The translations under genes and the position numbers were made by a program. Below the pieces are notes generated by a model. It ran no database searches, was not told the DNA's origin, and saw only the letters and a list, made by a program, of their open reading frames with translations. From a virus (Duplodnaviria > Heunggongvirae > Uroviricota > Caudoviricetes): a DNA stretch of 15,970 nt. The first letter of the stretch is position 1. Every line of letters begins with the position of its first letter. Location: positions 1 to 15,970 of IMG/VR virus record IMGVR_UViG_2778261276_000005. One strand, written 5' to 3'. This document shows, one piece after another, positions 1-15,970 of this stretch.

Positions 1-209
1 GTGGCGGCCTCAGTCCGGAACAATTTGAAAACCAGAACCTCGCTTAGGCCTGTGTCCATATTACGTGGGTAGGATCAGTTATCCCTTCGTATCAATGACT
101 GACTCTTAAACGCAATGCTTTGGTTGCTGGCGTATCTGACAGCTTCTTCGGCGTGAAGGTCGTTGTGTAAGTATACTTCTTGGTTTATTTAGGCTATATA
201 AAACCATGA

Positions 210-1106: not shown

Positions 1107-1999
1107 TTTGATACCTCTTTGTTTACTGGGTTTAATATCTGAGATGGTAGTTCTGAAAGATTCTCTTGTTCAAGTATATTTTGAAAGCTTTTATTCATCA
1201 TTATGATGTTAAAAATCTCATTTATTATTAGTAGATTGGTTTTTATAAATTTCGAGTTGTTATAAACAGATTTATGTTCAGCGATACTATTTTCATAAAG
1301 CTCAATCAACTCCTCTGCAGTCATCCTTTTTGATGGTTTGTGATAATAAAATCCGGCTGCTTTTGCACCTTTATTCCCAACTGTTCTTTGATTTAGAATG
1401 TATTTTATCTTTATAATGTCCCGACTTTTTATTAATTTTTTATCATATGCTTCGGTAAGAATATCTTGTGCTTCCTCAGTTTCACATCTTGCAAATTGCA
1501 CTGCGAGATACAGAGGCAAATTACCCCGTTCGACTGCTGAGAGAAGTTTATGCTCTCCCTTATCAAGAAGCATATTAATACTGCTCACCCAGTTCGATGA
1601 ATATCCAGTAATCTCACTTATTTCGGAGTCTGAAAGTCCTCTGATTTTCATGTCTTTAATCACCTGTAATAACTCATTAGAACGTGGTCTTCTCCTTGCA
1701 ATGTTTTCAACTAAACTCATAACGTAAGCATCTTCTTCTGATACATCTCTTATAATTGCTGGAATAATAGTTTCACCTAATGCAACAAGAGCCTCTATTC
1801 TCCCTTGACCACAAATTAAAGCATATTTGAAATCGTCTTCATCAATAGTTCTTACGCTTATAGGCTTGCTTAATCCTCTTTTTTTTATGCTTTCCTTTAT
1901 TTCTTCATGCACTACCTTATTTCTTGTTCGTGGGTTAAGAAATTTTATTTTTGCAATCTCAATTTGAATTATTGGGAATTCATTTTTTTCAGGCAGCAT
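1103..1999 (-). CDS. ParB/Srx-fold protein (ParB N-terminal domain-like), paralog B
   Basis: 298-aa ORF; LICGQGRIEAL (box II-like G-x-x-R-x-x-A) and SLVENIARRRP (ParB box III-like) motifs; start overlaps the recombinase stop (1989-1999); GAGGGA ribosome-binding site 5 nt upstream. Confidence 0.65.
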   Translation of the reverse strand: MLPEKNEFPIIQIEIAKIKFLNPRTRNKVVHEEIKESIKKRGLSKPISVRTIDEDDFKYALICGQGRIEALVALGETIIPAIIRDVSEEDAYVMSLVENIARRRPRSNELLQVIKDMKIRGLSDSEISEITGYSSNWVSSINMLLDKGEHKLLSAVERGNLPLYLAVQFARCETEEAQDILTEAYDKKLIKSRDIIKIKYILNQRTVGNKGAKAAGFYYHKPSKRMTAEELIELYENSIAEHKSVYNNSKFIKTNLLIINEIFNIIMMNKSFQNILEQENLSELPSQILNPVNKEVSK

Positions 2000-3545
2000 A
2001 TAGTTCCCTCACTTTCATGCGAGTAATAATTTGTAGAAATTTATCAAGATTATCAAATCTATAGAGATCTAACCGAATGTTGTTTGTTTCCATCATACAC
2101 ATTTTACTATATTCGTTTTCAATCTTTGGTATGATATAAAAATCAAGAGGTGAAATATTTTGTGAATTCATTCGTATAACAATTGTTATGTCTGCTTTCT
2201 GTGAGTTATCAAACCGGACTTTCCATCTAAGTTTACCTGATTTCATATGTATGCATTTAGTAACAAGGACGGAAATTAAAAACTCATCATTGATGTAAAG
2301 CATTGGGTAATATTTATACTCGTCTATATGACAGTTACTTTTTAATATTTCGCCCTTAAAATCCTCAATTATCTCTGAGTAAAATGATCTTAGTGCTTCA
2401 TTTATTTGGAGATAGCTGTAATCATGTTCTGGCTTATAACCAATCAAAGTATATGCTCTTAAAAGACCACCAAATCGGGTTCTATAAACAGAAGATGAAG
2501 GGCCTGTATCATCTTCATCAATGATAAAGCCTGATAGTTTTCCATTAGATTCTAATTTTTCTTTTAGCTTTTCTAATAGATCTTCATTAGTCAAATGAAT
2601 GGATCGGAGCTGAATTATTTCTTGAGCTTTATTATATTTTTTCTTTGAAATAATTGGTTTATATGCCTTGTCACATCTAATCCATTCATGTTTGGGGTTT
2701 TTTACAAGCCTACTTTTTAGTTTAGATGAGGTTTTGTTATATATGTTGTTTCCAATATATTTTTCATTTGTCAAAATTTGATGTATTTTTGCACGAGTCC
2801 ATGATGTTCCATTTTCTGCAGGTATGCTCTGTTCATTTAATCTCTCAGCAATAATGAATTCTGGGACGTTACTATCTATAAAGAGATCATAGATTCTATT
2901 TACAATTTTTATTTCATTTTTTGGTCCCGGAATTAATATTACCCTATCTGTTTGAATACTCTTTCTTTTGCGGAAATTCAATATTTCTTTAGCTATGCCA
3001 TTTTCGTCTACTAAAAGACGTCTCAGCCCATAACCAGCCATACCGCCTTGATGATAACCAAGCTTTATTAAATTTACTTGCCCTATAAATACCTTTTCAG
3101 ATAGATTCCTGCTGTGATATGCAGCACTTGATCTTTTTATATTCAGTATAACAGAGGACTCTAAAGGGAAATCTTTAGTGGGTATAGGTTCGGAACAATA
3201 TATAAGATCTACACCATTTCTTTCAAATAGAAAGGAATAATATGCAGCTTCATCACTATTTTGAAAACGACCAAAACGGCTCACATCATAAAATAATACA
3301 GCCTGTATATCTATTTTCTTTTGTTCTACATCGCTAAGTAACTGCTGCAAAGAATGCCTGCCTACGATACTGACTCCGCTCTTACCTGCATCATCGTAGG
3401 TATAAGCGATTTCCATATTGTTCTTTTCAGCATAATCTTTGATATATTCAGACTGATTATGTAAAGAATATTGCTGATGGTCGGTAGACATCCTCAAGTA
3501 CTGTGCGACCCTAACTCTATGATTTTTTTCATTTCCGCTAGCCAT
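1989..3545 (-). CDS. Large serine recombinase (resolvase/invertase-type catalytic domain plus long C-terminal recombinase extension)
   Basis: N-terminal motif YLRMSTDHQ with the catalytic Ser, typical of serine recombinases; about 518 aa from the ATG at 3545 (the ORF track begins at a TTG at 3551); GAGG 8 nt upstream of that ATG. Confidence 0.85.
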   Translation of the reverse strand: MASGNEKNHRVRVAQYLRMSTDHQQYSLHNQSEYIKDYAEKNNMEIAYTYDDAGKSGVSIVGRHSLQQLLSDVEQKKIDIQAVLFYDVSRFGRFQNSDEAAYYSFLFERNGVDLIYCSEPIPTKDFPLESSVILNIKRSSAAYHSRNLSEKVFIGQVNLIKLGYHQGGMAGYGLRRLLVDENGIAKEILNFRKRKSIQTDRVILIPGPKNEIKIVNRIYDLFIDSNVPEFIIAERLNEQSIPAENGTSWTRAKIHQILTNEKYIGNNIYNKTSSKLKSRLVKNPKHEWIRCDKAYKPIISKKKYNKAQEIIQLRSIHLTNEDLLEKLKEKLESNGKLSGFIIDEDDTGPSSSVYRTRFGGLLRAYTLIGYKPEHDYSYLQINEALRSFYSEIIEDFKGEILKSNCHIDEYKYYPMLYINDEFLISVLVTKCIHMKSGKLRWKVRFDNSQKADITIVIRMNSQNISPLDFYIIPKIENEYSKMCMMETNNIRLDLYRFDNLDKFLQIITRMKVRELYAA

Positions 3546-3827
3546 GCACAAAACCTCATGGATGATTCAATACAATGTAGAGGATAAAATTGATCAAATT
3601 TTAACCGAATTCAACTGTTTTATCATTGATTAGAGCGAATTTGGTAGTTCTTCGAGGTGTATGATAATCGAGAAGAGATGTGAATTATTTAGCTGATATG
3701 ACCGACAGCTTTCGTTATGTGGCCTCAAGGTACCCATTTGTAAATGGCTATGCTTAGTCCACATAGGTTAATGGTGTGATCATTAATTCTTCAAATAAAT
3801 CAAGATAGTTAACCCATCATGGAAGAG

Positions 3828-5057
3828 TTATGCGGCAATAACTTTGTATTTTTGAGACGAAACATAGTCACTCCACCATTGCATGAGAACCACACGTTCT
3901 GTGAGATACTCTGCACGATTGTAGGCTGCAATTATTTCATCTTTTTTCGAGTGGGCAAGGGCGGCTTCTAAGACATCAGTTCTAAACTTGCCACACTCCT
4001 CAGCCGCCGTTCTAGCGATTGATCGCATACCATGAGCTACAAGCTCACCTCCGAAGCCCATACGGATTATAGCCGCATTAGCTGTTTGTTCATGCATGTG
4101 ATTGAGTGGAGCTTTGATACTGGGAAAAACCCACTCTCTATGCCCGCTGATGGCTTTCATTGAATCCAAGACTCGCAAAGATTCTTTGCTCAGTGGAACT
4201 TTGTGAGGCTTCTTCATTTTCATAAACTCCGCCGGGATGTTCCACATGCTGGTTTCTATATCAATATCTGACCATCTTGTGCGAACAGCTTCACCAGGGC
4301 GAACCCATGTGAGAAGTTGCCACTCAATCAGTAGCCTTGTTTCTAAACGGATAGAAGCATTGTTTAGAGCAACCAGGAAGCGGGGGAGTTCGGAAGGGGG
4401 TAATGCTGGCATATTCTGTTTTTTTGGCTTGCTGAACCGTTGCCCCAGGTTGTCAGCCGGATTGAATTCTATGAGTTCTTCTGTTGCTGCATAGCGGAAA
4501 ATTTCATTCAGGCGGGATATGACGCGGCGAAGTGTTTCAAGGACACCTCGTTTTTCTATGGGGTCTAAATGCTGTTTAAGCATTTTAGGGCGAATCTCCT
4601 TAATGGGGGTATCACCCAACGTTGGAAAGATATTTCTCTCTAGGCTTCGCCAGATGTCGTTAGCATGATCCTGGGAGATGCCTGACGTTTTGACTTTCTC
4701 ATCAAGCCACTTCTTGGCTACTGCTTGAAATGTATGTTCCGTTGCATCCTTAAGGGCATTGGCTTTGTGGGTGTTATGAACTTGTGGGTCTATACCATTT
4801 GCAAGCAACGACAAGTACTCATCACGTAAAGCTCGTGCCTTCGCAAGTGTAAGGTGAGGATAGGTTCCTAAGCTCACCTTAGTTCGCTTTTTGGTCACAG
4901 GCACTGCATATCTGAAATACCAATTTTTCTTTCCTCCCTTCGCTAAGGGGGCGATTCGCAGGAGCAAACCATCGCCGTCAAAAAGGTTAACCTCTTTCTC
5001 GGCAGGTTTGGTGCTTTTGATTTCAGTGTCAGTGAGCTTCTTAGCGATTTTTGCCAT
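3828..5057 (-). CDS. P4-family tyrosine integrase
   Basis: Arm-binding N-terminus (KNWYFRY), C-terminal catalytic region with HGMRSIARTAAEE ... LAHS ... AYNRAEY (R/H/Y catalytic residues); the ORF track extends to 5201, but the ATG at 5057 (MAKIAKKL...) has a GAGGG ribosome-binding site 8 nt upstream, giving about 410 aa. Confidence 0.9.
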   Translation of the reverse strand: MAKIAKKLTDTEIKSTKPAEKEVNLFDGDGLLLRIAPLAKGGKKNWYFRYAVPVTKKRTKVSLGTYPHLTLAKARALRDEYLSLLANGIDPQVHNTHKANALKDATEHTFQAVAKKWLDEKVKTSGISQDHANDIWRSLERNIFPTLGDTPIKEIRPKMLKQHLDPIEKRGVLETLRRVISRLNEIFRYAATEELIEFNPADNLGQRFSKPKKQNMPALPPSELPRFLVALNNASIRLETRLLIEWQLLTWVRPGEAVRTRWSDIDIETSMWNIPAEFMKMKKPHKVPLSKESLRVLDSMKAISGHREWVFPSIKAPLNHMHEQTANAAIIRMGFGGELVAHGMRSIARTAAEECGKFRTDVLEAALAHSKKDEIIAAYNRAEYLTERVVLMQWWSDYVSSQKYKVIAA

Positions 5058-5100
5058 GTTTGGGACCCTCATGTTTTGGACCCTTTGTGTTGGGTCCCAA
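5058..5100 (-). promoter_or_regulatory. Cluster of GGGACCC-type repeats just upstream of the integrase start (possible regulator or integrase binding sites)
   Basis: GTTTGGGACCC (5058-5068), GTTTTGGACCC (5073-5083) and the inverted copy TTGGGTCCC (5090-5098) within 45 bp. Confidence 0.3.
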
Positions 5101-5155
5101 AAAGGGTGCCATAACGAGTAGATTCTAGCAATTCTCGGTAGACTACTATAGACGT

Positions 5156-5189
5156 AAAAAAGCCCGCAAGGCTGGTTCCATGCGGGCTT
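5156..5189 (-). terminator. Rho-independent terminator, minus strand, just downstream of the ssrA 3'-end fragment
   Basis: Perfect 9-bp inverted repeat AAGCCCGCA / TGCGGGCTT (5160-5168 / 5181-5189) followed on the minus strand by a run of T (plus-strand A run 5156-5161). Confidence 0.6.
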
Positions 5190-5223
5190 GATAGACTTCA
5201 CTGAACTTCAATATATCAAAAAT

Positions 5224-5254
5224 TGGTGGAGCTGGCGGGAGTTGAACCCGCGTC
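5224..5254 (-). repeat. ssrA: 31-nt fragment identical to the 3' end of tmRNA (ssrA); attachment-site repeat, not a complete gene
   Basis: Minus-strand sequence GACGCGGGTTCAACTCCCGCCAGCTCCACCA matches the acceptor/T-arm 3' terminus of enterobacterial tmRNA as I recall it; similarity stops abruptly at 5255 and no tmRNA body follows. Confidence 0.8.
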
Positions 5255-5379
5255 AAAATTTATATAATCTTTTGTAAAATATACGTTTTTTCTATTGTTT
5301 TTGATCCGCGTATACTTCGCGTACACTTTGCCATTTGAACTTAAACATGCTGCCGTCGCTACATCATGACATGTTATTT

Positions 5380-6081
5380 TTACTTCTCATTTTCAAAGTC
5401 ATCACGAATGTTAATTAGATCTGTAATCAAAGCGCCAACTTTAGTTGAAGGATTTATCGAACCGTCTTTTTTGGCGGCATCTTCGACTCTTTTAGCATTG
5501 ATTAATGCCGTATCGAGCCGATCTTGCAATTTATTAAATACACCTGATGCCTTTTTCTCATAATCTGGCATGTATTTTTTTAACTCAGCTAGCATTTGTG
5601 CGCCTTCACTTTTGCCTTTCTGAGGTGAAAATGATTTTCGGGGGTATCCAAAATGTAGTATCAGCCAGTACTCGAAACATGGTATGGAAGTTATAGCAAC
5701 AAAAATCCCTTTTGGATTTAAGGAATTAATCCTGCTAAGAGCTTCATCATAGTTAGGGTGAGCGTCTCTATCAAAGACACAATAAACCTTATCATAAGGG
5801 TCGCTCCTTTTTTTTTCCGTATTATATTTTTCTTTTGCCCAAGATACCACATTCATAGGGCTTGAGCCGCACTCTCCAGAAATCTCAACTATGCTTGCCG
5901 TGCTTATACGGCAATGTTTTATAAAATCTGTAAAATATGCGGGCTCAGTCTTCTCTCCCTCACAGACGATAAGAATTTTCTTCATTTGAGCTCGTGCTTT
6001 ACTAACTCGTTTGAATTCATTATTACGCCGAGCCTTTCTTTTTTTGAACAGATCTTCGCTTCCCATTAATATCTCTCCCAT
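5380..6081 (-). CDS. RloB-like (AbiLii-family, TOPRIM/OLD-type) protein
   Basis: Motifs ILIVCEGEKTEPAYF, VFDRDAH and CFEYWLILHF characteristic of the RloB family; overlaps the upstream ATPase gene by 16 nt; an alternative ATG at 6066 (TAATG overlap, GGAG 8 nt upstream) would give 228 aa. Confidence 0.7.
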   Translation of the reverse strand: MGEILMGSEDLFKKRKARRNNEFKRVSKARAQMKKILIVCEGEKTEPAYFTDFIKHCRISTASIVEISGECGSSPMNVVSWAKEKYNTEKKRSDPYDKVYCVFDRDAHPNYDEALSRINSLNPKGIFVAITSIPCFEYWLILHFGYPRKSFSPQKGKSEGAQMLAELKKYMPDYEKKASGVFNKLQDRLDTALINAKRVEDAAKKDGSINPSTKVGALITDLINIRDDFENEK

Positions 6082-7331
6082 TTCCCAATGAGTGGTAAAG
6101 CCCCATATCTACCGTCAAGATAAGAAGCTTCTAAATTCTCCCTTCCTTTTCTTGGACTAAAATCCGTAAGTGGGAAAAGATTTGTTTGCTTTGAATTGTC
6201 TTTTTCTACAAACCAAATCTGATCTCGTCTGAAAACATCTTGATTTAAAATAGACGTCTCATGAGTTGTAAAGATTAACTGGGCACCATTCTTATTGATA
6301 TTTTTATCGTGAAATAAACCTACAATAAACTCAACTAATTTGGGGTGTAAGTTATCATTTAATTCATCAATAAACAGGATGTTTCCTGTCTCGAGTGAAT
6401 GTGATAAGGGACCCGCGAAACTAAAGATTTTTCTAGTTCCATGCGATTCATCTTTTAAATCGAATGGAATTGGCTCTCCATCCTCATTATTATGAAGTGT
6501 TTTAATGACATATTCTTCCTTGCCTTGCATATTCTTAATCACTAGTTCCTTGATGGCTGCAGGCATATCATCAGGAAGAGCATTGGGATTGAATTTTTCT
6601 TTTGTTACATGAATGTCATCAATACCTACATCGGCAGCTTTTAAAAAATTGAGAATCTCATCTTTCTTATCATTTAAGCATTGCTTTGCACTGTAATCAC
6701 TATCCCAACCTGTTAATTCAGTAAATTTAACTTTGTAATAAAACCAATCGTATACAGGTTTTAGTTGTACACTGTTTAATTGTACCGCTGTAGAAAGAAA
6801 GAGCGCATTAGGCCTAGTTGATTTCAACCATGTTTGTTTTTCTCCTGTCAACGATGGCCCCAACTCCCATTCATGGGTTTGTTTTTCTTCATCCCATAGA
6901 CGTAAAAACCATTTTTGTGGTCTGCCTTTGGGGAATGCAAATAACCATTCGTCGTGAATAAAATCTTCTGTTGCAGAAAAACCATACTGGTATCTGATGC
7001 CTTCGGAAATAAAGTTAATTTCAAATTCAGATGGTTGATTAATCTTCTTTGAGTCTAGTCTAAAAGGCGTGATATCAAGTTTATCACCACTTTTATAACC
7101 TGTAGCAGACCGGACAATAAGTTCAGCCATAGTTGTAATAGCGTTAATAATGTTTGATTTTCCGGCAGCATTAGGGCCATAAATCACAGCACTTTTAAGC
7201 AATTCAAGAGATTTAGGTTCATCAATACTGAACAGATTATTAGGCAAATCGTTAAGTTTTGATGCAACTAAACTCAGTGTTTGTTTCTCTGAAATAGATT
7301 TATAGTTTTGTACTGTAAACTCAATCAACAT
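6066..7331 (-). CDS. AAA/ABC-type ATPase (AbiLi-like, AAA_21/AAA_15-type)
   Basis: Walker A GPNAAGKS near the N-terminus, Walker B LFIDELNDNLH near the C-terminus, 421 aa; AT-rich; first gene of a two-gene operon. Confidence 0.75.
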   Translation of the reverse strand: MLIEFTVQNYKSISEKQTLSLVASKLNDLPNNLFSIDEPKSLELLKSAVIYGPNAAGKSNIINAITTMAELIVRSATGYKSGDKLDITPFRLDSKKINQPSEFEINFISEGIRYQYGFSATEDFIHDEWLFAFPKGRPQKWFLRLWDEEKQTHEWELGPSLTGEKQTWLKSTRPNALFLSTAVQLNSVQLKPVYDWFYYKVKFTELTGWDSDYSAKQCLNDKKDEILNFLKAADVGIDDIHVTKEKFNPNALPDDMPAAIKELVIKNMQGKEEYVIKTLHNNEDGEPIPFDLKDESHGTRKIFSFAGPLSHSLETGNILFIDELNDNLHPKLVEFIVGLFHDKNINKNGAQLIFTTHETSILNQDVFRRDQIWFVEKDNSKQTNLFPLTDFSPRKGRENLEASYLDGRYGALPLIGKWERY

Positions 7332-7521
7332 AATTTATACCCTTTTAACTTCCCATAGCTTAAAAACCACTAAAAGTGATTTTATAGCACAAATTTGACA
7401 AAAAACGTCAAATCTTTGCATTTAATGCACACTAAAACCATTGTACACTATCCTCATCATCCTGCTAACATTCTTGTAAGCTTTACTGTTTTGCGAAGGG
7501 GGGCTAGTGCTATCGGGCGTT

Positions 7522-8718
7522 TTACTTCTCAATTTTCATGTTCTCCGGATTTTTTGATACTTGGTCCTTACAAGCTGTCTTGCCATCATAGTCTACGAGA
7601 TACGAACCATAATGCCTGAAAAGCATTTCCGGCCCTTTATGCCCCATTTGAGCTGCAAGCCAAAACAGATTTGCTCCTCGGCTGATATGGCTGGTGGCGA
7701 ATGTATGCCTAGTTTGATATGGATTTCTGTATCGAATACCTGCTTTCCGTAATGTTGGCACCCATGCTTTTTTCCTGATTGCATCAGCACTTGCCCAAGG
7801 CTTATTGGTCTTTGGGTCTTCAAAGACAGTAGCATCCTTCATGAATGTAAATGGCTTCTGATTTATCAGCGCCAACATTGCCTCTTCTGTCAGTTCAACT
7901 TTACGAGTACCTGCTTTTGTCTTTGTCCCTTTGATAACACCGACAACACTTGCGCTCTGGACATGGGCAGTTTTTCCAACAAAGTCGATATCACGCCATC
8001 GAAGGGCACATAATTCAGAACTACGCAGGCCTGTATGTATAGCGAACCGGAACAGATTCTCCCATTGTTTGTTTCCGGCTGCTGCTAGTAATGCATCAAC
8101 TTCTGTTGGTGATAGCGGATCAACCACGTAGCTGCTTTCTACTTCTGACTTATCACTTTGGTAGCGCGAAGCAGTTACCAACGATACGGGGTTAATTTGA
8201 AGTACCCCATCGGTTACGGCTTCATCAAGTGCTGACCGCAGGAAAGATAACTGGTTGCGAATTGTTTTTAAGGTCGTTTTCTGGCTTTGAATCCACGCTT
8301 TCAGGATTGCTGGTGTTAATTCACTTGCAGGGCAAATGTGGAGTGAGGCTAACGCACTACGGCATTTTTTATAACCACCAATCGTAGATGGTGAAAGTTT
8401 TCTCGTTTCGCAGATTTCAAGGTATTCGTCCAGGTACATTTTTACCGTTTTGCCTGCAGCAGCATTACCAAAAATTTTCAAACGAGCAGAACGGGGAAAA
8501 TATTCCGCATAAATGAATGTTCCCCTTTCGATCTTATTATGAATTTCGCCGAGTGTGCGCTCGGCGTATTTAATGTTCTTTGGTGTTACTTCCAGATTGG
8601 AAAGTGGCTCACGACATTTAACTCCTTTGTAGGTGAAAGTTATATTGATCGTTTCTCCCTGACGGTGTTTTCTGATTGTTACGCCGCGCGGTAGTTTGAG
8701 CAGTTTTGTCTGGCCCAT
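7522..8718 (-). CDS. Lambda-family tyrosine integrase
   Basis: 398 aa; C-terminal catalytic region RHTFATSHISRGANLFWLAAQMGHKGPEMLFRHYGSY and a C-terminus ending ...KIEK as in lambda Int; GAGG ribosome-binding site 7 nt upstream; 5' end overlaps xis. Confidence 0.9.
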   Translation of the reverse strand: MGQTKLLKLPRGVTIRKHRQGETINITFTYKGVKCREPLSNLEVTPKNIKYAERTLGEIHNKIERGTFIYAEYFPRSARLKIFGNAAAGKTVKMYLDEYLEICETRKLSPSTIGGYKKCRSALASLHICPASELTPAILKAWIQSQKTTLKTIRNQLSFLRSALDEAVTDGVLQINPVSLVTASRYQSDKSEVESSYVVDPLSPTEVDALLAAAGNKQWENLFRFAIHTGLRSSELCALRWRDIDFVGKTAHVQSASVVGVIKGTKTKAGTRKVELTEEAMLALINQKPFTFMKDATVFEDPKTNKPWASADAIRKKAWVPTLRKAGIRYRNPYQTRHTFATSHISRGANLFWLAAQMGHKGPEMLFRHYGSYLVDYDGKTACKDQVSKNPENMKIEK

Positions 8719-8885
8719 TTTGCAACCTCACTAAGATCAATCCACCTCTCCTTAACGCCTTCAACCTTTAAAACCTGAACACCTTCACGCCAAACACCGC
8801 GCTGTACACGTTTGTTTATTGCTTCAGGAGTTTCGCCAGTTTCTTTGCAATAAGTTGAGATAGGAACGCAATCGAGGTTCAGCAT
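8679..8885 (-). CDS. Excisionase (Xis-like winged-helix DNA-binding protein)
   Basis: Small basic protein directly upstream of and overlapping int; W/R-rich pattern (VQRGVWREG...ERWIDLSEVAKW) like lambda Xis; ATG at 8885 has GGAG 6 nt upstream (the ORF track begins at a GTG at 8897). Confidence 0.65.
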   Translation of the reverse strand: MLNLDCVPISTYCKETGETPEAINKRVQRGVWREGVQVLKVEGVKERWIDLSEVAKWARQNCSNYRAA

Positions 8886-8944
8886 ATGTTTCTCCACTTA
8901 GCCCGCTGCACACGGGCAGTAATATCAAATTCCAGTCCTGATAA

Positions 8945-9160
8945 TTAATTTTGTTCTCTGGTTGCTACCTGTTTTATTGGCCTGATGCTGTCCAGGAGCA
9001 GACGGCGACGCATGTTTGGCGCACCCCAACGGTAACCAGTCTTTTTGTCGTAGGATTCACAACGTCCGGCAACCCAGGACGTTTCAGTGGAATGTAATTT
9101 CATCCGCTTTTCACCGTCTCGGGTGATAACAATTCCTGTATGAGTTTTTATCACGCTCAT
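8945..9160 (-). CDS. Hypothetical small phage protein
   Basis: 71-aa ORF; ATG overlaps the stop of the upstream gene (ATGA at 9157-9160), i.e. translationally coupled within the leftward operon. Confidence 0.45.
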   Translation of the reverse strand: MSVIKTHTGIVITRDGEKRMKLHSTETSWVAGRCESYDKKTGYRWGAPNMRRRLLLDSIRPIKQVATREQN

Positions 9161-9519
9161 TTCTTAGTCTCTGGTGCTTTCGGCATTACTGCCCAGTGAG
9201 TGATATTGACGTTTTCAAGGTCCCCGACCTGAAATGTCCACTGCCATTCTCCGGTTTCTTTTTGCCCCCATGTGTACCAGAGAGAACGCCAGCCAATCAG
9301 CCAGCCTTCTCCATTAGCATCAAATAACAGAACACTTTCATTTGCTGGCGGCAGTTCAGCTGACACTGGTATTACTTTGTTTTCCAGAGCCGCACATTTA
9401 GCTTCAAGCGCATCGAATTTACGTACCAGATACTCAGCATTTGTTTCATTCACTTTCAGATCTCGCGGTACACATTTCCCGCGAAGAACCCCTTCCATTT
9501 CGAAAACATTCATGCGCAT
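9157..9519 (-). CDS. Hypothetical phage protein (Trp-rich C-terminus; YfdS-like by size and position)
   Basis: 120-aa ORF; GGAG 8 nt upstream of the ATG; overlaps the stop of the upstream HD-domain gene by 10 nt. Confidence 0.55.
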   Translation of the reverse strand: MRMNVFEMEGVLRGKCVPRDLKVNETNAEYLVRKFDALEAKCAALENKVIPVSAELPPANESVLLFDANGEGWLIGWRSLWYTWGQKETGEWQWTFQVGDLENVNITHWAVMPKAPETKK

Positions 9520-10046
9520 TTGCGTAACTCCGATAATTCGTTAAAGCGTTCCATAAACATCCCGTAGGCATGGCCTGGAGCCAGTGGAATCACGTTGAAC
9601 ATCTCTGTTGCCGGGATACCTTCCAGCACAGGCCAGAAAGAGCCATCATCAAGCCCGAGATCGCGGCGTTCGGTTGCCAGCATGATGAGATCGGCATATT
9701 TCACGGGGGTACTCATAACCGGGGGTAACCCGTATTTCTCACGGATTACGGCGTCTATTTTTTCTTCCATCCGTTTATAGTCAGGAAGAAGGCGTTTCAG
9801 TGGCGCCGGGATGTCCTGGCAATACGCTTCTGTTGCATCATGCATTAACGCTTCAAAAGCAAATTCCTGCGGTACCAGTTGGCTGCAAAGCACCGCATGT
9901 TGGGCGACGCTGTAGAAATGTGAAAGATGTCCTGCAAAGCGACAGATATTTGAAAGAGAAACCGCGATATCGTTAATAACGATGTCGTCTTTATTTATCC
10001 TGTCATAATAAAAATGCTTCCCGGAAAAAGTTTTAATAAATGACAT
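9510..10046 (-). CDS. HD-domain metal-dependent phosphohydrolase (YfdR-like putative 5'-deoxynucleotidase)
   Basis: H...HD motif pattern (SVAQHAVLCSQL, LMHDATEAYCQDIP); the ORF track starts at a GTG at 10073, but the ATG at 10046 has GGAG 8 nt upstream and gives 178 aa. Confidence 0.75.
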   Translation of the reverse strand: MSFIKTFSGKHFYYDRINKDDIVINDIAVSLSNICRFAGHLSHFYSVAQHAVLCSQLVPQEFAFEALMHDATEAYCQDIPAPLKRLLPDYKRMEEKIDAVIREKYGLPPVMSTPVKYADLIMLATERRDLGLDDGSFWPVLEGIPATEMFNVIPLAPGHAYGMFMERFNELSELRKCA

Positions 10047-10139
10047 TTTGTTCTCCACGTATATGCGCTGCACCGCGCTGAATTCTGGTAAAAGGAAGCC
10101 CTCACCATCCGGCGATTATTGAGTCAATTACGTTTCCAT

Positions 10140-10161
10140 AAATGCCCCCGCAGGGGCATTT
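10140..10161 (-). terminator. Perfect stem-loop right after the stop of the upstream gene (weak terminator or stability hairpin)
   Basis: AAATGCCCC-CGCA-GGGGCATTT, 9-bp stem with a 4-nt loop, 13 nt downstream of the stop at 10174; only a short U-tract. Confidence 0.35.
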
Positions 10162-10173
10162 GCAGTAATGAAA

Positions 10174-10998
10174 TCAGGCGGTGAAAGTACCAATAAAGGT
10201 TTCTACTTTGCTGTCCTTGAATTTCTCAACAAGCAGATCACGAAATTCGTTAGCCATTTCTTCCTGCACTGCTTCCAGCTGAATAATGCGCAGAACCAGT
10301 ACAGGACGATCGCCAGTGATAATGCTGAGGCGTAATTTAAACGGACGTTCTTTCAGGCCTTCAAACGGAACGCATTTAAATTCAAATGCCACAGGCATAA
10401 TATCTTTGGTCTTCGCTTCGACAGACTCCATCAGGGAGCGTTTGCCGCTGAAGTCATTGTCTTCAAAATCAGCGGTCTGGTTTGCTTCAATCGTGATTTT
10501 ACGGACTGCCGCAGCCGCTTTTGTTGCCTGAATGGCATCACCATTAGCATCAAAGCCCACAAGGTAGTCGGCCCAGTCTTCGATCCATTCTGCCAGTGAC
10601 TTCTGGGAGTTACGCTCGCCGTTAACAGACAACAGAGCAGAGAACGGTGCTGTCTTTTTCAGTTTGAGAGTGGCAGTGTTATCTGCGTGACCTGGCTCAT
10701 CAATAGTACCCAGGTTAAGCACACTGACGGCACGCATATTATCGGCATCGATAAAGCAGCGGGTGCCTTCATCTGCAAGATCTTTAGAATAACGAGTAAA
10801 GTCATCGATGCTGGCAGTGGAAAGCGCACCACGGAAACGGAAACGATTTAAATTAAATTTTTCCAGATCATGAATGCGGAAATTCTCAGGCAATGCCACA
10901 GCATCGGCACCAATCTTACTGATAATTTCATTAACACCCTGAGCAGAAATAAGGGCATGGATTTGATTAATTGCGGTTGCGTCTAAGTTCTGAGACAT
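10174..10998 (-). CDS. Phage protein of unknown function (YfdQ-like, 274 aa)
   Basis: Long ORF with GAGGA ribosome-binding site 6 nt upstream of the ATG; size and neighbourhood match the yfdQ-type gene of KplE1/CPS-53-like prophages (from memory, unverified). Confidence 0.65.
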
Positions 10999-11063
10999 AA
11001 TAAGTCCTCACTATATAAAAATATTCAGTGATGAGAGAAATAATCAGTTTATTAAAAACGATA

Positions 11064-11426
11064 TTAATGACCTGCTGCGCGGAGTTTTCCGTCAGGTTCA
11101 CCGGCAAGAGTCAGTAATTGTCCCTGGTCTTCCTGCAGAATAGTCAGGCGACCACCGCGATTGACATACATCGGCGTTTCGGTGGTGTCTTCTTCGGAAA
11201 TTTTCCCGCGGTTAGTCGGGCGAACATATGAGAGTTTGTGTTTGATTTTCACACGGTTCTCATCAAATGGTTCGATTTCCAGGTTGAGTGAGACCTTACC
11301 TTTGGTTTTCGTGTTCATCACACCGGAAGCGACTTCACTGAGAACTGCGCCGATTTTTGTTTCAAATACGCCGCCGTCCAGCTCCCCGATAAATGCCTGC
11401 ACATCAGTACTGCGTTCGCTAGCCAT
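11064..11426 (-). CDS. Hypothetical phage protein, first gene of the leftward early operon
   Basis: ORF track gives 197 aa from 11657, but the N-terminal 77 codons run through the GC-rich hairpin region; the ATG at 11426 (MASERSTDV...) has GAGGAG 7 nt upstream and gives 120 aa. Confidence 0.55.
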   Translation of the reverse strand: MASERSTDVQAFIGELDGGVFETKIGAVLSEVASGVMNTKTKGKVSLNLEIEPFDENRVKIKHKLSYVRPTNRGKISEEDTTETPMYVNRGGRLTILQEDQGQLLTLAGEPDGKLRAAGH

Positions 11427-11562
11427 TTTGTTGCTCCTCATCATATCGACCCTGCAAGGCCGATTAGTTTCTCCACAAAACAGAGAAGAACACCTGCGGT
11501 GGCAGCCGCCCGGATGGATTGGGTTATGAGCCCGTCGTCCGGTGATGCTCTTCTCTGTTTTG

Positions 11563-11609
11563 TAAAAAGAGCGGTACCAGCCGGAAGCAAGTGTACAAAC
11601 TGGTACCGC
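11563..11609 (-). terminator. Strong intrinsic terminator on the minus strand inside the leader of the leftward operon
   Basis: Perfect 10-bp inverted repeat GCGGTACCAG / CTGGTACCGC (11571-11580 / 11600-11609) followed on the minus strand by TCTTTTTA. Confidence 0.6.
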
Positions 11610-12020
11610 CAAAGCAGTGGCTGTTGTGGTGGGGTTGTCACTCAGGCGTATGGTCAACCTGACAATCCGGTGTCCTCAACGGGGAAAGAGTAACCCCGCC
11701 ATACTTACCGCCGCGCCATTTCGCGGATGACCACAACGCTGAGAGCACTTAGCCAGTTACGGCACCACACTTTGTCGCGGCTCCATAAATGCCCTCATCG
11801 TTGCACCCTGGTCTCTTCCCAGGCGTCAAACCGGATCGCCACGCTGGTTAGGCGTCTTATCAGCATCATCATTGACTTGCACATTCCGGCTACCTGGTTT
11901 GTTTGCCCTAGCAAGGAGTGGATTGTCCCCTTTAACGTCCCCAGACCGCTAACGACGCATGTGCCATACGCCGTGTTACAACCAAATTTTGTTAGTACCT
12001 TGTTTGTTGGTCTGGAAAGA

Positions 12021-12049
12021 AAGATAAAATGAAATTGCGCGTTGTGCAA
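12021..12049 (-). promoter_or_regulatory. Candidate pL-like promoter for the leftward early operon
   Basis: Minus strand TTGCAC - 17 nt - TATCTT; the -35 overlaps a 15-bp TTGC-N7-GCAA operator-like palindrome. Confidence 0.4.
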
Positions 12050-12072
12050 GTGTTTTGTTGCGAGATATGCAA
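12035..12072. promoter_or_regulatory. Two operator-like palindromes (oL-like)
   Basis: TTGCGCGTTGTGCAA (12035-12049) and TTGCGAGATATGCAA (12058-12072) share the TTGC-N7-GCAA architecture with a site in the cI-cro intergenic region. Confidence 0.5.
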
Positions 12073-12082
12073 TTTAATGGGT

Positions 12083-12107
12083 AATGAAAAGCCACCTTCG
12101 GGTGGCT
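12083..12107 (-). terminator. Rho-independent terminator following the cI-like repressor gene
   Basis: Stem GCCACC-TTCG-GGTGGC (12091-12106) about 20 nt after the cI stop, followed on the minus strand by TTTTCATT. Confidence 0.65.
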
Positions 12108-12127
12108 AATTGATGAGGAGGTAAGGG

Positions 12128-12820
12128 TTAATTGTGTCGCTTAAGGGTTTGTGACTGGCTGATTAAGACCTTTCCAAAGACCATAAACCGGTGTTCATTT
12201 TCGCTGGTAATTCCCCATTCACGGTAAATCTGGTTATCAGAAATCACCAGTAGTTTGTCAGGTATCATTTGCAGTCGTTTGACATAAATTTTATCATCAA
12301 AACCAAATACATAGATACCATCTCCATCAAACTGATTGATACTGACATCAACGAAGATGAGATCTCCTGGCTCAATGGTTGGACACATACTGTCCCCACG
12401 AACGTTGATAACTTTAATGTGATTGGCTGGTCGTCCGCCAAACATCGATACAGCATTATCAGTTCTGTATTCAATGGCATGAATCACATCAATGACATCA
12501 CCGCCCTGGATAAGGCCATTTCCCGCACTGGCACTGACATCCAGCATTTCAATACGGAATACATCCTTCACCTGCGCAACATCCTCACTAATACTGTTTT
12601 TACATACAGTATTACTTTTGAAGTCTGAGGTAAAGAGATCAGCAATATCAACACCTAAGCTCCTGGCAATATTACTCAGGGCTTGTTCAGTGAATTGTTT
12701 CTGCTTACCTGTTTCCAGGCGTGAGATATTCGCCGCATCCACTCCTATTGCTTCAGCGAGATCGGCGATTTTCATGTTCTTCGCCTGGCGAAGTTGTCTG
12801 ACTCGATTTCCTATGTTCAT
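12128..12820 (-). CDS. cI-like prophage repressor (XRE-type HTH plus LexA-like S24 autopeptidase domain)
   Basis: N-terminal HTH (VRQLRQAKNMKIADLAEAIGVDAANISRLETGKQ), C-terminal GDSM ... VKRL Ser/Lys dyad pattern; divergent from a cro-like gene. Confidence 0.9.
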   Translation of the reverse strand: MNIGNRVRQLRQAKNMKIADLAEAIGVDAANISRLETGKQKQFTEQALSNIARSLGVDIADLFTSDFKSNTVCKNSISEDVAQVKDVFRIEMLDVSASAGNGLIQGGDVIDVIHAIEYRTDNAVSMFGGRPANHIKVINVRGDSMCPTIEPGDLIFVDVSINQFDGDGIYVFGFDDKIYVKRLQMIPDKLLVISDNQIYREWGITSENEHRFMVFGKVLISQSQTLKRHN

Positions 12821-12917
12821 GCGTTTATTACATTTCTTTATTGCGCGTTAAGCAAATCAACTTGCGCAAAATAGTTGCGTGAAATAATATGCTTATCACG
12901 CAATATGTGGAGGTTAT
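12821..12917. promoter_or_regulatory. Immunity-region control region: divergent pRM-like and pR-like promoters with operator-like sites
   Basis: Plus strand TTGCGC (12862-12867) - 17 nt - TAATAT (12885-12890) then GGAGG and the cro ATG; minus strand TTGCTT (12855-12850) - 17 nt - TGTAAT (12832-12827) ending 6 nt before the cI ATG; palindrome TTGCGCGTTAAGCAA (12841-12855) and inverted repeat TTGCGTGA-N13-TCACGCAA (12875-12903). Confidence 0.6.
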
Positions 12918-13178
12918 ATGCAATCACCATTACGGAATGTGCGTAAAGCGCACGGATTTACTTTGCAGCATGTTGCTGCGGGCGTTCAGGTCAATCCAGC
13001 GACGCTGAGTCGTATTGAAAGACTGGAACAAATTCCATCTATCGACCTTGCAGAACGTCTGGCCAATTTTTTTAAGGGTGAAATCAGCGAAATGCAGATT
13101 CTTTATCCGGCACGTTTTCAATCTAGCCAAAACCAGAATGGGTTTAAACCACAGGAACAGGAGGTAAGCCGTGGGTAA
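12918..13178 (+). CDS. Cro-like HTH regulator
   Basis: 86 aa; HTH FTLQHVAAGVQVNPATLSRIER; GGAGG ribosome-binding site; divergent from cI across the operator region. Confidence 0.75.
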   Translation: MQSPLRNVRKAHGFTLQHVAAGVQVNPATLSRIERLEQIPSIDLAERLANFFKGEISEMQILYPARFQSSQNQNGFKPQEQEVSRG

Positions 13179-13722
13179 GCATCACTGGAAAGTGGAAAAA
13201 CAGCCTGAGTGGTACGTGAAAGCTGTCAGAAAAACTATCGCGGCGTTGCCGGGGGGGTACGCTGAAGCTGCTGAGTGGCTGGATGTAACAGAGAACGCTT
13301 TATTCAACCGCCTTCGTGCAGATGGCGATCAGATTTTCCCGCTGGGATGGGCAATGATTTTACAGCGCGCTGCTGGCACTCACTACATTGCGGATGCTGT
13401 CGCACAGTCTGCTGGTGGGGTGTTTGTATCGCTTCCTGAAATTGAGGAAGTAGAGAACGCAGATATAAACCAGCGCCTGCTGGAAGTCATCGAACAGATC
13501 GGGAGTTACTCAAAGCAGATTCGTTCGGCAATCGAAGATGGGGTAGTGGAGCCACACGAGCAGACAGCAATTAATGATGAATTGTATCTGTCAATTTCGA
13601 AGCTCCAGGAGCATGCGGCACTGGTCTACAAAATTTTCTGCGCTCCAGAAAAGAGTGACGCCCGCGAGTGTGCAGCTCCGGGCGTCGTGGCGTTTTGTGT
13701 CTGTGGAGAAACTAACGCATGA
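13171..13722 (+). CDS. cII-like / phage regulatory protein (putative)
   Basis: 183 aa, GTG start with GGAGG 6 nt upstream, overlapping the cro stop by 8 nt; position and acidic, helix-rich sequence suggest a CII/CP76-type regulator, but the family assignment is uncertain. Confidence 0.5.
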   Translation: MGKHHWKVEKQPEWYVKAVRKTIAALPGGYAEAAEWLDVTENALFNRLRADGDQIFPLGWAMILQRAAGTHYIADAVAQSAGGVFVSLPEIEEVENADINQRLLEVIEQIGSYSKQIRSAIEDGVVEPHEQTAINDELYLSISKLQEHAALVYKIFCAPEKSDARECAAPGVVAFCVCGETNA

Positions 13723-14870
13723 ACAGTTTAACGGCAAATAACCGTTTGTCGCAACAGCTGGTGGTCAGTGTCGCTGCACACCTGTTGTTACGGCATGAAT
13801 GCAGATTACCAAATCACCTGGCTGTAAGTAACCACAGAGAACTTTACCTGACTGTGGGGGGCGAGTTGTGCAGGAACTTAACCGCTGGTTTCGTGACGGA
13901 AGAGGACTTTATGTTCATGTTATTCGTTGGGAGCCAGAAACACAGCGCGTTATCTATCTTCGCAAAGACTACCCGCATGAGTGCTTTAGTCCTTTGTGGA
14001 AATTCAGGCGTGATTTTGTTGAGTGTGAAGGACCACCAGCACATTGATTCTGCCATTCCGGGACGTTACACTGTTCAGGCACCTTATAAAACGGGTGCCG
14101 GGCGTGGAAACCCGGAATTCACCAAAGCGCACAACCGCGCTCTTGCGGTTTTTTTGTGTCATGAGCAGCATTACGCCCAAATTATGGTGGGGCGTGCAGG
14201 GCCAACTTCGGTTGGGCCGGGTTCTTTGGTGACCGGTATTTCCACCCCTGTACGTCTCACCACCAATAAGGTCGTGGAAAGCCTTGGTGGTGAGTTATTA
14301 AAAATCACCAAAGAGGCTGCCATCATGGCTACGATCCCAACCCTCACTCAACCTGAAATTGCCATCGTTGATGGTCAGGCTGTTACTTCATCTCTGGCTG
14401 TTGCCAACTTCTTCTCCAAACGTCATGACGATGTACTGAAAAAGATCCGCACGCTTGAATGCTCCGCATCATTCACTGCCCGCAATTTTTCGGTGAGTGA
14501 TTACACCGATTGCACAGGCCGCAAACTACCTTGCTATCAAATAACCCGCGACGGCTTTGCGTTTCTTGCTATGGGGTTCACGGGTAAACGTGCTGCCCAG
14601 TTCAAAGAGGCATACATCAATGCCTTTAACCAGATGGAGAAACAGCTTTCAAAGCCCGCTGTACCGAGCGACGTTGCACATAACGCCAGCGTTCTCTGTT
14701 CCTACATTTCATCAATTCATCAGGTCTGGCTGCAGCAGCTTTATCCTATGTTGGCAAAAGCCGAATCCCCGCTGGCTGTTAGCTTGTATGACTATATTAA
14801 TGATGCTTCGGCACTGGCCTGCCTCATAAATTTGTCACTGAACCCTTCAGAGGTAAGGGGGCGCAAATGA
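13719..14870 (+). CDS. Rha-family phage regulatory protein (Rha domain in the C-terminal half; N-terminal about 200 aa of unclear assignment)
   Basis: Frame open for 383 codons with ATG overlapping the upstream stop (ATGA at 13719-13722); Rha-type motif IAIVDGQAVTSSLAVANFFSKRHDDVLKKIRTL begins just after an internal ATG at 14325, which has AAGAGG 9 nt upstream and may be the true start. Confidence 0.55.
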   Translation: MNSLTANNRLSQQLVVSVAAHLLLRHECRLPNHLAVSNHRELYLTVGGELCRNLTAGFVTEEDFMFMLFVGSQKHSALSIFAKTTRMSALVLCGNSGVILLSVKDHQHIDSAIPGRYTVQAPYKTGAGRGNPEFTKAHNRALAVFLCHEQHYAQIMVGRAGPTSVGPGSLVTGISTPVRLTTNKVVESLGGELLKITKEAAIMATIPTLTQPEIAIVDGQAVTSSLAVANFFSKRHDDVLKKIRTLECSASFTARNFSVSDYTDCTGRKLPCYQITRDGFAFLAMGFTGKRAAQFKEAYINAFNQMEKQLSKPAVPSDVAHNASVLCSYISSIHQVWLQQLYPMLAKAESPLAVSLYDYINDASALACLINLSLNPSEVRGRK

Positions 14871-15091
14871 TCCGGAATATTTTCAAACGGTTTACCAATC
14901 ATACTTTCCGTTGTCCTCGTCCGGGTCAGTGGTACACCACGCCTGCAGGGCATGTTCTACGTGTTAGCCTGGTGGACCGTGAATGTCAGAAGGTGATTTG
15001 TGAACCGCTGGGCCGTAATTACCGCGTCAGTATGCCGCTTATAGCCTTTTGCTCCGGAAAAAACATGAAGCATCTCGGAGGTGCAGCATGA
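14867..15091 (+). CDS. Hypothetical small phage protein
   Basis: 74-aa ORF; ATGA overlap with the Rha stop at 14867-14870, and its own stop overlaps the next start (ATGA at 15088-15091). Confidence 0.45.
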   Translation: MIRNIFKRFTNHTFRCPRPGQWYTTPAGHVLRVSLVDRECQKVICEPLGRNYRVSMPLIAFCSGKNMKHLGGAA

Positions 15092-15894
15092 GTATGGAGC
15101 TGATGGTTAAAGCGATGAAAATTCGAGTGGGTAATCCATTACGAAAACTGGTTCTGATCAAGCTGGCTGATAATGCCAGCGATCAGGGTGAGTGCTGGCC
15201 CAGCTACCAGCATATTGCTGACCAGTGCGAGATTAGCAAACGTTCTGTGATGAATCATATTGCGGCCCTTTGTGAGTCCGGGCTGGTAAAAAAAGTCACC
15301 CGGAAAGGTGAAAAAGGTAACTCAAGTAATATCTATCTCCTTCATCTGGATGGTGCAGGAGATTCACTAGGGGGTAGTGCAAATAATTCACTATCTGGTG
15401 CAGCAAATTCACCAGGTAGTGCAGGAGTTGCACCAGGGGGTAGTGCAGGAGATTCACCCAGAACCAGTCACTCTTTTGAACCAGTCAATGAACCAATAGC
15501 TGTTGGTGCATCTGCTGATGAGTCTGTGCGAGTTCGTTCAAACCGACCGGAATACTCTCCGGAGTTTGAGCAGGCATGGCTGGCATACCCCAAACGTGCT
15601 GGTGGCAATTCAAAATCTGCAGCCTTCAAAGCCTGGAAAGCCCGTTTGAATGAGGGGGTAAAACCCGAAACCATGCTGGAAGGTGTGAAACGCTACGCGG
15701 GCTGGGTATCTGCGATGGCTAACAGCGGAACACAATTTGTGAAACAGGCTGTCACGTTCTTTGGTCCGGATCGTCATTTCGAAGAATCCTGGGAAGTTCC
15801 TGCGGTATCTGCAGCCAGACGCGAGGACCCGTACTTCAAAGCCAGTTACGACAACGTGGACTACAGCCAGATCCCGGCAGGATTCAGGGGGTAA
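15088..15894 (+). CDS. Replication initiator, lambda O-like (N-terminal HTH, low-complexity linker, C-terminal domain)
   Basis: HTH region LRKLVLIKLADNASDQGECWPSYQHIADQCEISKRSVMNHIAAL; start ATG at 15088 has GGAGG upstream (the ORF track starts at 15049); contains in-frame direct repeats at 15354-15467. Confidence 0.7.
   Translation: MSMELMVKAMKIRVGNPLRKLVLIKLADNASDQGECWPSYQHIADQCEISKRSVMNHIAALCESGLVKKVTRKGEKGNSSNIYLLHLDGAGDSLGGSANNSLSGAANSPGSAGVAPGGSAGDSPRTSHSFEPVNEPIAVGASADESVRVRSNRPEYSPEFEQAWLAYPKRAGGNSKSAAFKAWKARLNEGVKPETMLEGVKRYAGWVSAMANSGTQFVKQAVTFFGPDRHFEESWEVPAVSAARREDPYFKASYDNVDYSQIPAGFRG
15354..15467. repeat. Five tandem imperfect 21-24-bp direct repeats (iteron-like; candidate origin of replication inside the O-like gene)
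   Basis: TGCAGGAGATTCACTAGGGGGTAG / TGCAAATAATTCACTATCTGG / TGCAGCAAATTCACCAGGTAG / TGCAGGAGTTGCACCAGGGGGTAG / TGCAGGAGATTCACCCAGAACCAG; every unit length is a multiple of 3. Confidence 0.5.
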
Positions 15895-15896
15895 TC

Positions 15897-15970
15897 ATGA
15901 GTCTTTTGAATGAAGTTCAGAAATTCATTGAAGCCCATCCGGGGTGTACTTCCGGAGACATTGCGGATGC
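15897..15970 (+). CDS. 5' end of the next rightward gene (partial; possibly the replication partner of the O-like gene)
   Basis: ATG at 15897 preceded by GGGGG 5 nt upstream, directly after the O-like stop; encodes MSLLNEVQKFIEAHPGCTSGDIAD..., running off the window. Confidence 0.4.
   Translation, partial: MSLLNEVQKFIEAHPGCTSGDIAD

Follow-up and report, generated by a model that had tools for sequence, protein, structure and literature searches.

A probable replication origin inside the HTH_36 initiator gene of a lambdoid prophage

Why does a phage replication initiator carry, in the middle of its gene, a run of direct repeats whose number varies between otherwise near-identical proteins? 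The question is raised by a 15,970-nt stretch of tailed-phage DNA (IMG/VR record IMGVR_UViG_2778261276_000005, positions 1 to 15,970; the window), near the end of which lies a gene for a 268-residue initiator. The original prediction, made from the sequence alone, proposed that five tandem repeats in this gene are a candidate phage origin, and comparison with relatives supports that proposal. The five repeats are very probably the iterons of the prophage replication origin, lying inside the gene of the initiator that would bind them; iterons and an adjoining 38-nt block would together form a composite replicator in that part of an HTH_36 initiator gene which encodes a predicted disordered linker. 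Such an origin layout is known from phage lambda; here it would belong to another and very common initiator family, whose origin is to our knowledge unmapped.

Five tandem dyads encode a predicted disordered linker

The initiator gene opens with an ATG that overlaps the stop of a small upstream open reading frame (ORF) as ATGA. Its product matches the Pfam helix-turn-helix (HTH) family HTH_36 (44.1 bits, cut-off 25) and, over residues 3–267, PHROG 270 'replication initiation protein' (E 9.7e-88); by sequence, it is a member of the HTH_36 winged-helix replication initiators (PHROG 270). All of its Pfam matches at E ≤ 0.01 are HTH_36, DnaD_N, B-block_TFIIIC and HTH_20, the DnaD_N match to the N-terminal domain being weak (E 3.5e-05, under cut-off). 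Neither Phage_rep_O (PF04492) nor Rep_3, with its double winged-helix signature, is among them. Searched as a whole protein, the initiator gave only sub-threshold HTH regulators in NCBIfam and only spurious matches, to its low-complexity linker, among PDB sequences. The features of the gene are as follows.

15088..15894, + strand: replication initiator gene, 268 amino acids (ORF and translation)
15088..15351, + strand: predicted N-terminal winged-helix DNA-binding domain, residues 1–88 (AlphaFold2)
15238..15279, + strand: predicted recognition helix, residues 51–64, KRSVMNHIAALCES (AlphaFold2 helix; half-site co-variation)
15353..15367: putative iteron 1, core GTGCAGGAGATTCAC (unit 15353–15376)
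15377..15391: putative iteron 2, core GTGCAAATAATTCAC (unit 15377–15397)
15398..15412: putative iteron 3, core GTGCAGCAAATTCAC (unit 15398–15418)
15419..15433: putative iteron 4, core GTGCAGGAGTTGCAC, a perfect 5-N5-5 palindrome (unit 15419–15442)
15443..15457: putative iteron 5, core GTGCAGGAGATTCAC (unit 15443–~15459), directly against the conserved block and in fixed register with it
15457..15494, + strand: conserved 38-nt block CCCAGAACCAGTCACTCTTTTGAACCAGTCAATGAACC, encoding RTSHSFEPVNEP in the disordered linker
15550..15747, + strand: helical C-terminal domain, residues ~155–220, presumed to recruit a partner (AlphaFold2, PHROG)

Five units lie head to tail, starting at 15353, 15377, 15398, 15419 and 15443 (24, 21, 21, 24 and 24 nt); the repeats of 21–24 bp that had been proposed are all present, and the array start differs by one base from the position first given (15354). 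Each unit opens with a 15-nt core, GTGCA-N5-T(T/G)CAC, which is a 5-N5-5 inverted repeat. This internal dyad symmetry, like the second conserved element at 15457–15494, goes beyond the original prediction. The exact pattern GTGCANNNNNTKCAC occurs five times in the window, every time in the array. With one mismatch allowed on both strands there are 13 core matches, against 2.04 ± 1.64 in 200 dinucleotide shuffles, none of which reached 13. A palindrome at 7416–7430, TTGCATTTAATGCAC, between the AbiL genes and the integrase, is a one-mismatch core match on both strands; it probably arose by chance or belongs to the attachment region.

The array is in frame within the ORF (15088–15894), where it makes up codons 89–126 of 268. 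As the original prediction had it, unit lengths are multiples of three and the units (24/21 nt) encode a linker, GAGDSLGGSANNSLSGAANSPGSAGVAPGGSAGDSP. An AlphaFold2 model built on a 17-sequence alignment gives the N-terminal domain helices at residues 3–11, 17–29, 40–47 and 51–64 and a wing at 67–73/79–85, with block-mean pLDDT (predicted local distance difference test) values of 67–92. Residues 91–154 have pLDDT below 50 and take in nearly all of the array-encoded residues (~89–126); the array is thus predicted to encode a disordered linker between the winged-helix and C-terminal domains. Pfam and AlphaFold2 agree in placing it after the N-terminal HTH domain, where it had first been put. The C-terminal helices (158–166, 176–189 and 193–213) are modelled with moderate pLDDT, and PHROG matches include 'DnaD-like helicase loader' and 'primosomal protein' families. 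Foldseek against the PDB returned generic winged-helix matches, among them DnaD-N (2v79, E 0.02), all at E > 0.01.

Other signals were sparse. A sigma-70 scan found no promoter-like site, a terminator scan found one minus-strand, terminator-like hairpin upstream of the array, at chance level, and Rfam matched 14800–15970 only once, to a microRNA by chance (22 bits against a gathering score of 84). In the replication region, neither the window nor most relatives yielded a further repeat family or a cluster of AT-rich repeats.

The repeats are conserved as DNA

Could the array simply be a protein feature, a slippage-prone, low-complexity Gly/Ser/Ala/Pro linker whose length is selected in the protein, with a DNA repeat that has no cis function? 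Predicted disorder, copy number that differs among close relatives and window units that are all multiples of three would suit such a linker. The comparison bearing on this drew on a genome set of 80 loci from one-genome-per-species contigs (Enterobacterales, Pseudomonas, Shewanella, Marinomonas, Photorhabdus, Xenorhabdus and other genera) and a viral set of 80 loci from viral contigs.

Copy number does vary, as had been foreseen. Near-identical proteins have 1 (P0043), 2, 5, 8 or 9 units; the phage cdtI owes its 8 units to an exact 66-nt duplication of three, some close relatives carry runs of a 21-nt unit encoding GSAGVAP, and the two-unit variant P0032 is found on 64 contigs. Yet a constant array of five units spaced 24-21-21-24 is present in 50 of 62 DNA loci with an SKRSVMNH helix, which is unlike free slippage, and the viable phages SfV, mEp460, Ayreon and cdtI retain the array.

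Dyad repeats of 5-N5-5 geometry stand at the same gene position in ~150 related loci from Enterobacterales, Pseudomonas, Shewanella and Marinomonas, and in most of the 80 genome loci the top tandem repeat of the 5.5-kb locus falls at residues ~87–130 of the gene, with a period of 21–24. Mosaic relatives are instructive: a C-terminus of the window's type joined to a different N-terminal domain comes with different in-frame repeats in the same place. L004 has four TGCCA-N5-TGGCA units encoding PPMPSDGT-like peptides, L005 has six related units and L006 has two copies of GGGCA-GGAGC-TGCCC. The peptides of different iteron classes (GAGDSPGG, PPMPSDGT and GGAGAAP) are unrelated, but all classes keep this geometry and a period close to two helical turns. 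Pseudomonas units are 23, 22, 21 and 24 nt apart; the 23- and 22-nt units shift the frame between repeats and put one unit out of frame with the others. Fifteen loci of other genera carry iterons of the GTGCA/TTCAC type. Their N-terminal domains agree with that of the window at only 24–55% of synonymous third positions, near saturation, and all 15 nevertheless have 4–7 matching iterons.

Unrelated peptides, frame-changing spacing and iterons that persist at near-saturated divergence together rule out a purely peptide-level repeat. The original prediction had raised conservation of the repeats as protein linker only; we find the opposite, with the DNA conserved, the peptides unrelated and the array kept in functional phages. 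These comparative data largely refute a linker without cis function, which we regard as highly improbable. Read instead as iterons, the repeats explain the length polymorphism of an otherwise conserved gene. An origin located in the coding region of a disordered linker would let the protein accept any peptide that the DNA sites impose, and this linker is a clear example of a protein sequence set by a cis-acting DNA element.

Predicted recognition helices co-vary with repeat half-sites

Across the genome loci, and again in the 80 viral contigs, the sequence of the predicted recognition helix changes together with that of the iteron arms. At least seven classes were distinguished, listed here as helix and half-sites.

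SKRSVMNH, SRRSVI[NS]H: GTGCA..TTCAC
SERSVQNH: GTG[CA]A..TGCAC
SKRSVMRH, SKRSAMRH: GTGAC..GTCAC
[GS]RSTVKxH: GGGCA..TG[CA]CC
CSKSAVRxH: TGCC[AG]..[CT]GGCA
DRSTVRKH: TAGGC..GCCTA
MSRKTAIGH: GTGTA..TACAC

Helix similarity and half-site similarity are correlated (Mantel r 0.69, reached in 0 of 2000 permutations), a statistic that is supportive rather than decisive and by itself no proof of recognition, because helix and iterons lie ~100 bp apart and are inherited together. With helix variants paired to half-sites, the comparative set offers a readable protein–DNA specificity series. The iteron GGTGAATCTCCTGCACC, found in L026 (Microbulbifer), L025 and L056 and as the first unit of L019, is the exact reverse complement of the window's GGTGCAGGAGATTCACC; relative to gene and block, then, this site, which is slightly asymmetric, can point either way.

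A near-invariant block abuts the last repeat

Directly behind the array lies the 38-nt block (15457–15494), which contains GAACCAGTCA direct repeats at 15461 and 15478 and whose family form is CCCAGAACCAGTCACTCTTTTGAACCAGTCAAxGAACC. In an ungapped, block-anchored alignment of 78 loci, the majority base accounts for 90%, 89% and 87% at codon positions 1, 2 and 3, compared with 36–44% in the flanks. Several codons are nearly fixed among the 78 loci (AGA in 74, AGT in 73, CAC in 76 and GAA in 77), and such substitutions as exist often alter the amino acid (ACC to ATC, TTT to TCT, CCA to TCA). In 13 of the 15 loci with near-saturated synonymous sites, the block is 84–97% identical to that of the window, L029 (76%) and L069 (63%) being the others. 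Protein folding offers no explanation for this conservation, because the block peptide, RTSHSFEPVxEP, falls in a predicted disordered region.

The block is also low in G+C: 40% in the window, compared with 50% for the gene (6th percentile among the gene's 40-nt windows), and ~41% across the 78 loci whatever the G+C content of the host (37–63%), with a median at the 3rd percentile of 40-nt windows. The iteron zone averages 58% G+C. The block is conserved in sequence rather than merely AT-rich. Its position is constant too: across all iteron classes, the dyad nearest the block ends at one fixed position relative to it, as seen in 64 of the 78 genome loci and 73 of the 78 viral ones.

At least 13 C-terminal regions without mutual BLAST similarity follow the block. 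Scanning viral contigs for the exact pattern gave at least 120 occurrences, each on a contig of its own, and in 74 of the 80 viral loci the block stands in frame behind a GECWPS winged-helix motif; contig ends truncate four of the six exceptions. The remaining two, L131 and L153, have the block without a recognisable in-frame GECWPS motif upstream, contig ends not being the reason; truncation or a frameshift of the gene may account for them, or an N-terminal domain of another kind. The window has one 12-nt GAACCAGTCAAx copy fewer than most relatives (15478–15499; EPVN EPI versus EPVK EPVN EPI in L001, L002 and L003), which accounts for a gene length of 807 as against 817–819 nt; relatives have 2, 3 or 4 such copies.

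We considered whether the block is a homologous-recombination 'linker' for exchanging N-terminal/iteron modules with C-terminal ones and no part of an origin. The point at which mosaics are joined coincides exactly with the block, different N-terminal domains being attached there to one C-terminus, and the C-terminal classes behind the same block number at least 13. A megablast match in E. coli 1218KP (H105; NZ_CM173878.1, 3911201–3911237) covers the 37-nt block alone (query 371–407), in a dissimilar HTH gene; by its sequence, this is the block travelling with a different initiator. Exchange alone leaves unexplained, however, both the near-invariance at all codon positions in hosts of 37% and 63% G+C, where non-synonymous changes are tolerated more often than synonymous ones, and the fixed register with the last iteron. 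As a full account of the block it is distinctly unlikely, and the two roles, recombination and origin, are not exclusive.

By analogy with the AT-rich half that lambdoid origins conserve, we infer that the block is the common half of the origin, a candidate DNA-opening or helicase-entry element. An integration host factor (IHF) site, oriC-like 13-mers and a DnaG CTG priming site were looked for in the block by eye only, with no convincing match. A 5-N5-5 dyad within it, TTTGA-ACCAG-TCAAA, has arms that vary among relatives and is probably not a conserved feature.

It is possible, and we propose it tentatively, that the block is no generic AT-rich tract but a universal replicator element recognised by its sequence and read in register with the last iteron. 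Its reader would then be a factor conserved across Gammaproteobacteria or an invariant face of the winged helix. Such a role would explain the near-invariance at host G+C contents of 37–63%, the override of codon and amino-acid choice, and the presence of at least 13 C-termini behind one block. If true, it would combine with a simple helix-to-half-site code to give a natural set of orthogonal, reprogrammable origins.

Origin or control element

Genuine initiator sites need not be an origin. The array could serve in regulation (autorepression, a transcriptional roadblock or handcuffing-type copy control), with the origin elsewhere in the phage. Plasmid iterons commonly double as control elements, co-variation and dyad symmetry speak to recognition rather than to initiation, and the flank of the array is only moderately AT-rich. 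Set against this are the lack of any competing repeat family or AT-rich cluster in the replication region of the window and most relatives, the fixed register of an invariant block with the last iteron, which suggests a composite replicator and not a simple operator, and a layout that matches the mapped ori-lambda. We judge a purely regulatory role unlikely.

Several observations weigh against our assignment of the array and block as an origin, in addition to the limited force of the co-variation. No TTATNCACA-like DnaA box lies within 1.3 kb of the array, and DnaA-box-like sites in the window are fewer than in shuffles. The block is only ~60% A+T, much weaker than the AT-rich tract of lambda. 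Variants with one or two units (P0043 and P0032) exist. The C-terminal domain, for which Pfam gave nothing at E ≤ 10 and the PDB no sequence match, is by these searches without recognisable homology to a characterised helicase-recruiting domain. In the literature we found no binding, footprint, origin-cloning or marker-frequency data for this initiator family.

Partner genes and a proposed mechanism

The gene that follows the initiator was scanned at 10 representative loci, nine of which encode helicase-loading or helicase proteins there; that of L017 had no Pfam match.

L007, L009, L020, L023, L027, L044: DnaC/IstB-like ATPase next
L037: lambda P homologue next
L066: DnaB-like helicase next
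L075: Toprim-helicase next

The partner varies with the C-terminal class. In other genera, the window's own C-terminal class is usually followed by a DnaC-like (DnaC/IstB-like ATPase) gene. The lineage of SfV, Stx, cdtI and ST64B and its metagenomic relatives have other genes next (PerC/YfdN-like, Dam, a small LexA-DNA-binding-like protein and RusA). No P, DnaC or DnaB-type partner gene lies directly downstream in SfV, cdtI, ST64B or the metagenomic relatives, and the complete SfV genome has no annotated helicase, loader or primase, nor any other annotated replication gene. Because this lineage is without a loader or helicase beside the initiator, we infer that it uses the host DnaC-DnaB.

Neighbouring genes that follow O/P and gp18/gp12 logic make the initiator, by analogy, functionally O-like yet outside the O sequence family. 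The description 'O-like' in the original prediction accordingly holds for the lambda-O-like layout and the partner-gene logic and fails for family membership, there being no Phage_rep_O match.

The steps of initiation can be proposed by analogy with ori-lambda and O, the sequence architecture being what is observed here. After derepression, rightward transcription from the cro-side promoter would yield the 268-residue initiator, whose N-terminal winged-helix dimers would bind the five dyad GTGCA-N5-TKCAC sites. A spacing of 21–24 bp, about two helical turns, would place these sites on one face of the DNA in a wrapped nucleoprotein complex. That complex could destabilize the adjoining block (15457–15494), with its low G+C, A-rich top strand and register with the last iteron. 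The C-terminal domain would then recruit the replicative helicase, presumably via the host DnaC-DnaB. The linker peptide would remain free to follow the DNA sites, the origin lying in the region that encodes the disordered linker.

Genomic setting and distribution

Two mobile elements adjoin one another in the window, and the initiator belongs to the second in order, a lambdoid prophage.

210–5201, − strand: other mobile element, with two ParB/RepB-like genes, a large serine recombinase and a second tyrosine integrase
5380–6081, − strand: AbiLii/RloB (E 3e-29)
6066–7331, − strand: AbiLi/AAA_21 ATPase (E 4e-101)
7522 onward: lambdoid prophage
7522–8718, − strand: prophage integrase
12128–12820, − strand: CI-type repressor with S24 peptidase domain
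12918–13178: Cro-like HTH gene
13171–13722: CII-like gene
13719–14870: Rha/Ash protein, 383 amino acids (Ash at residues 117–213, Rha at 223–308)
14867–15091: small ORF
15898..15970, + strand: first part of the next gene, truncated where the window ends

The counterpart of the gene at 15898 in relatives is PerC/YfdN-like, neither helicase nor loader. The Rha/Ash gene stands between the cII-like and replication genes, where lambda has no comparable gene. A 9-nt tandem repeat, TCAATGACA, lies within the cI repressor gene (12471–12500; 3.3 copies, 76% matches). The AbiLi/AbiLii pair, a match to the AbiL abortive-infection system, sits just outside the prophage integrase, and DNA of the other mobile element is found near ssrA in other E. 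coli genomes.

At the DNA level, the initiator gene is 97–99% identical in Stx2c and Stx2a phages, phage 2H10, SfV (orf39), cdtI (orf46), mEp460 and Ayreon, and 87% identical to sb42 of ST64B. Of 5,426 complete E. coli genomes, 897 carry at least 80% of its length. Roughly half of the complete genomes (for example H81, H84, H87; K-12-type strains) match only its last 74 nt, beside yfdN; by sequence this looks to be what is left of the same gene in a cryptic prophage.

The gene belongs to Shiga-toxin phages (Stx2c, Stx2a, 'Eru6'), the serotype-converting Shigella phage SfV, Salmonella ST64B and cdtI. Papers describing these replication units locate no origin, and in the literature on Eru, SfV, ST64B, HTH_36 phages and the core and block sequences we found no description of this one. 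Since toxin output follows phage replication, an origin whose position is known offers a concrete target to those who would study the amplification of toxin phages or block it.

Comparison with known replication systems

Iteron plasmids (pSC101 RepA, R6K pi, RK2 TrfA, F RepE and P1 RepA) have winged-helix initiators and multiple direct repeats of 17–22 bp, which adjoin an unwinding element often containing short direct repeats. Their iterons lie outside the rep gene, usually with DnaA boxes. The window differs in its intragenic iterons, the lack of a DnaA box nearby and the absence of a Rep_3 signature.

Repeats inside the rep gene have reportedly been described for some Gram-positive phages, lactococcal TP901-1 and similar ones. 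The window initiator is like the DnaD-type replication organisers and the Rep proteins with an in-gene origin, as in TP901-1, in the weak DnaD_N similarity of its N-terminal domain, but it is without the DnaD C-terminal (DnaB_2) domain; hosts and sequences are others, and homology is not established. Weigel and Seitz (FEMS Microbiol Rev 2006) reportedly classify 'initiator-solo' phage replication modules.

Closest in gene content is the Eru6 replication unit of Stx phages, in which a Rha-family gene and then an HTH_36 gene lie rightward of cI (representative Stx2a_WGPS2, AP012537; PMC8951638). Rightward of cI the window matches this gene set, and its replication gene is 97.1% identical to that of AP012537 (H24), so by sequence its replication region corresponds to an Eru6 unit. 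The word 'iteron' does not occur in either Eru paper and no origin is discussed; PMC8951638 classifies genes only.

In architecture the nearest system is lambda. The lambda record places four ori iterons at codons 117–145 of the 299 of O, with starts 20, 24 and 23 nt apart, followed by an AT-rich run; the equivalence of position proposed in the original prediction is borne out by these codons, a 20–24-nt spacing and the AT-rich stretch that comes after. The differences are plain: an HTH_36/DnaD_N-like initiator without a Phage_rep_O match, five 15-bp 5-N5-5 cores as against four 18-bp iterons, a sequence-invariant 38-nt block of ~60% A+T in place of a strongly AT-rich tract, and a lineage in which no P, DnaC or DnaB gene follows. 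What the window shares with ori-lambda, as also with ori/O of phi80, 82 and 21 and gene 18 of P22, is a set of tandem dyad iterons about two helical turns apart, their location mid-gene in the initiator, in the linker-coding part that comes straight after the DNA-binding N-terminal domain, and a segment of lower G+C downstream. As in lambda O, the N-terminal domain and iterons would form the module that sets specificity, and the C-terminus goes with the partner, helicase or loader, which in the relative L037 is a lambda P homologue.

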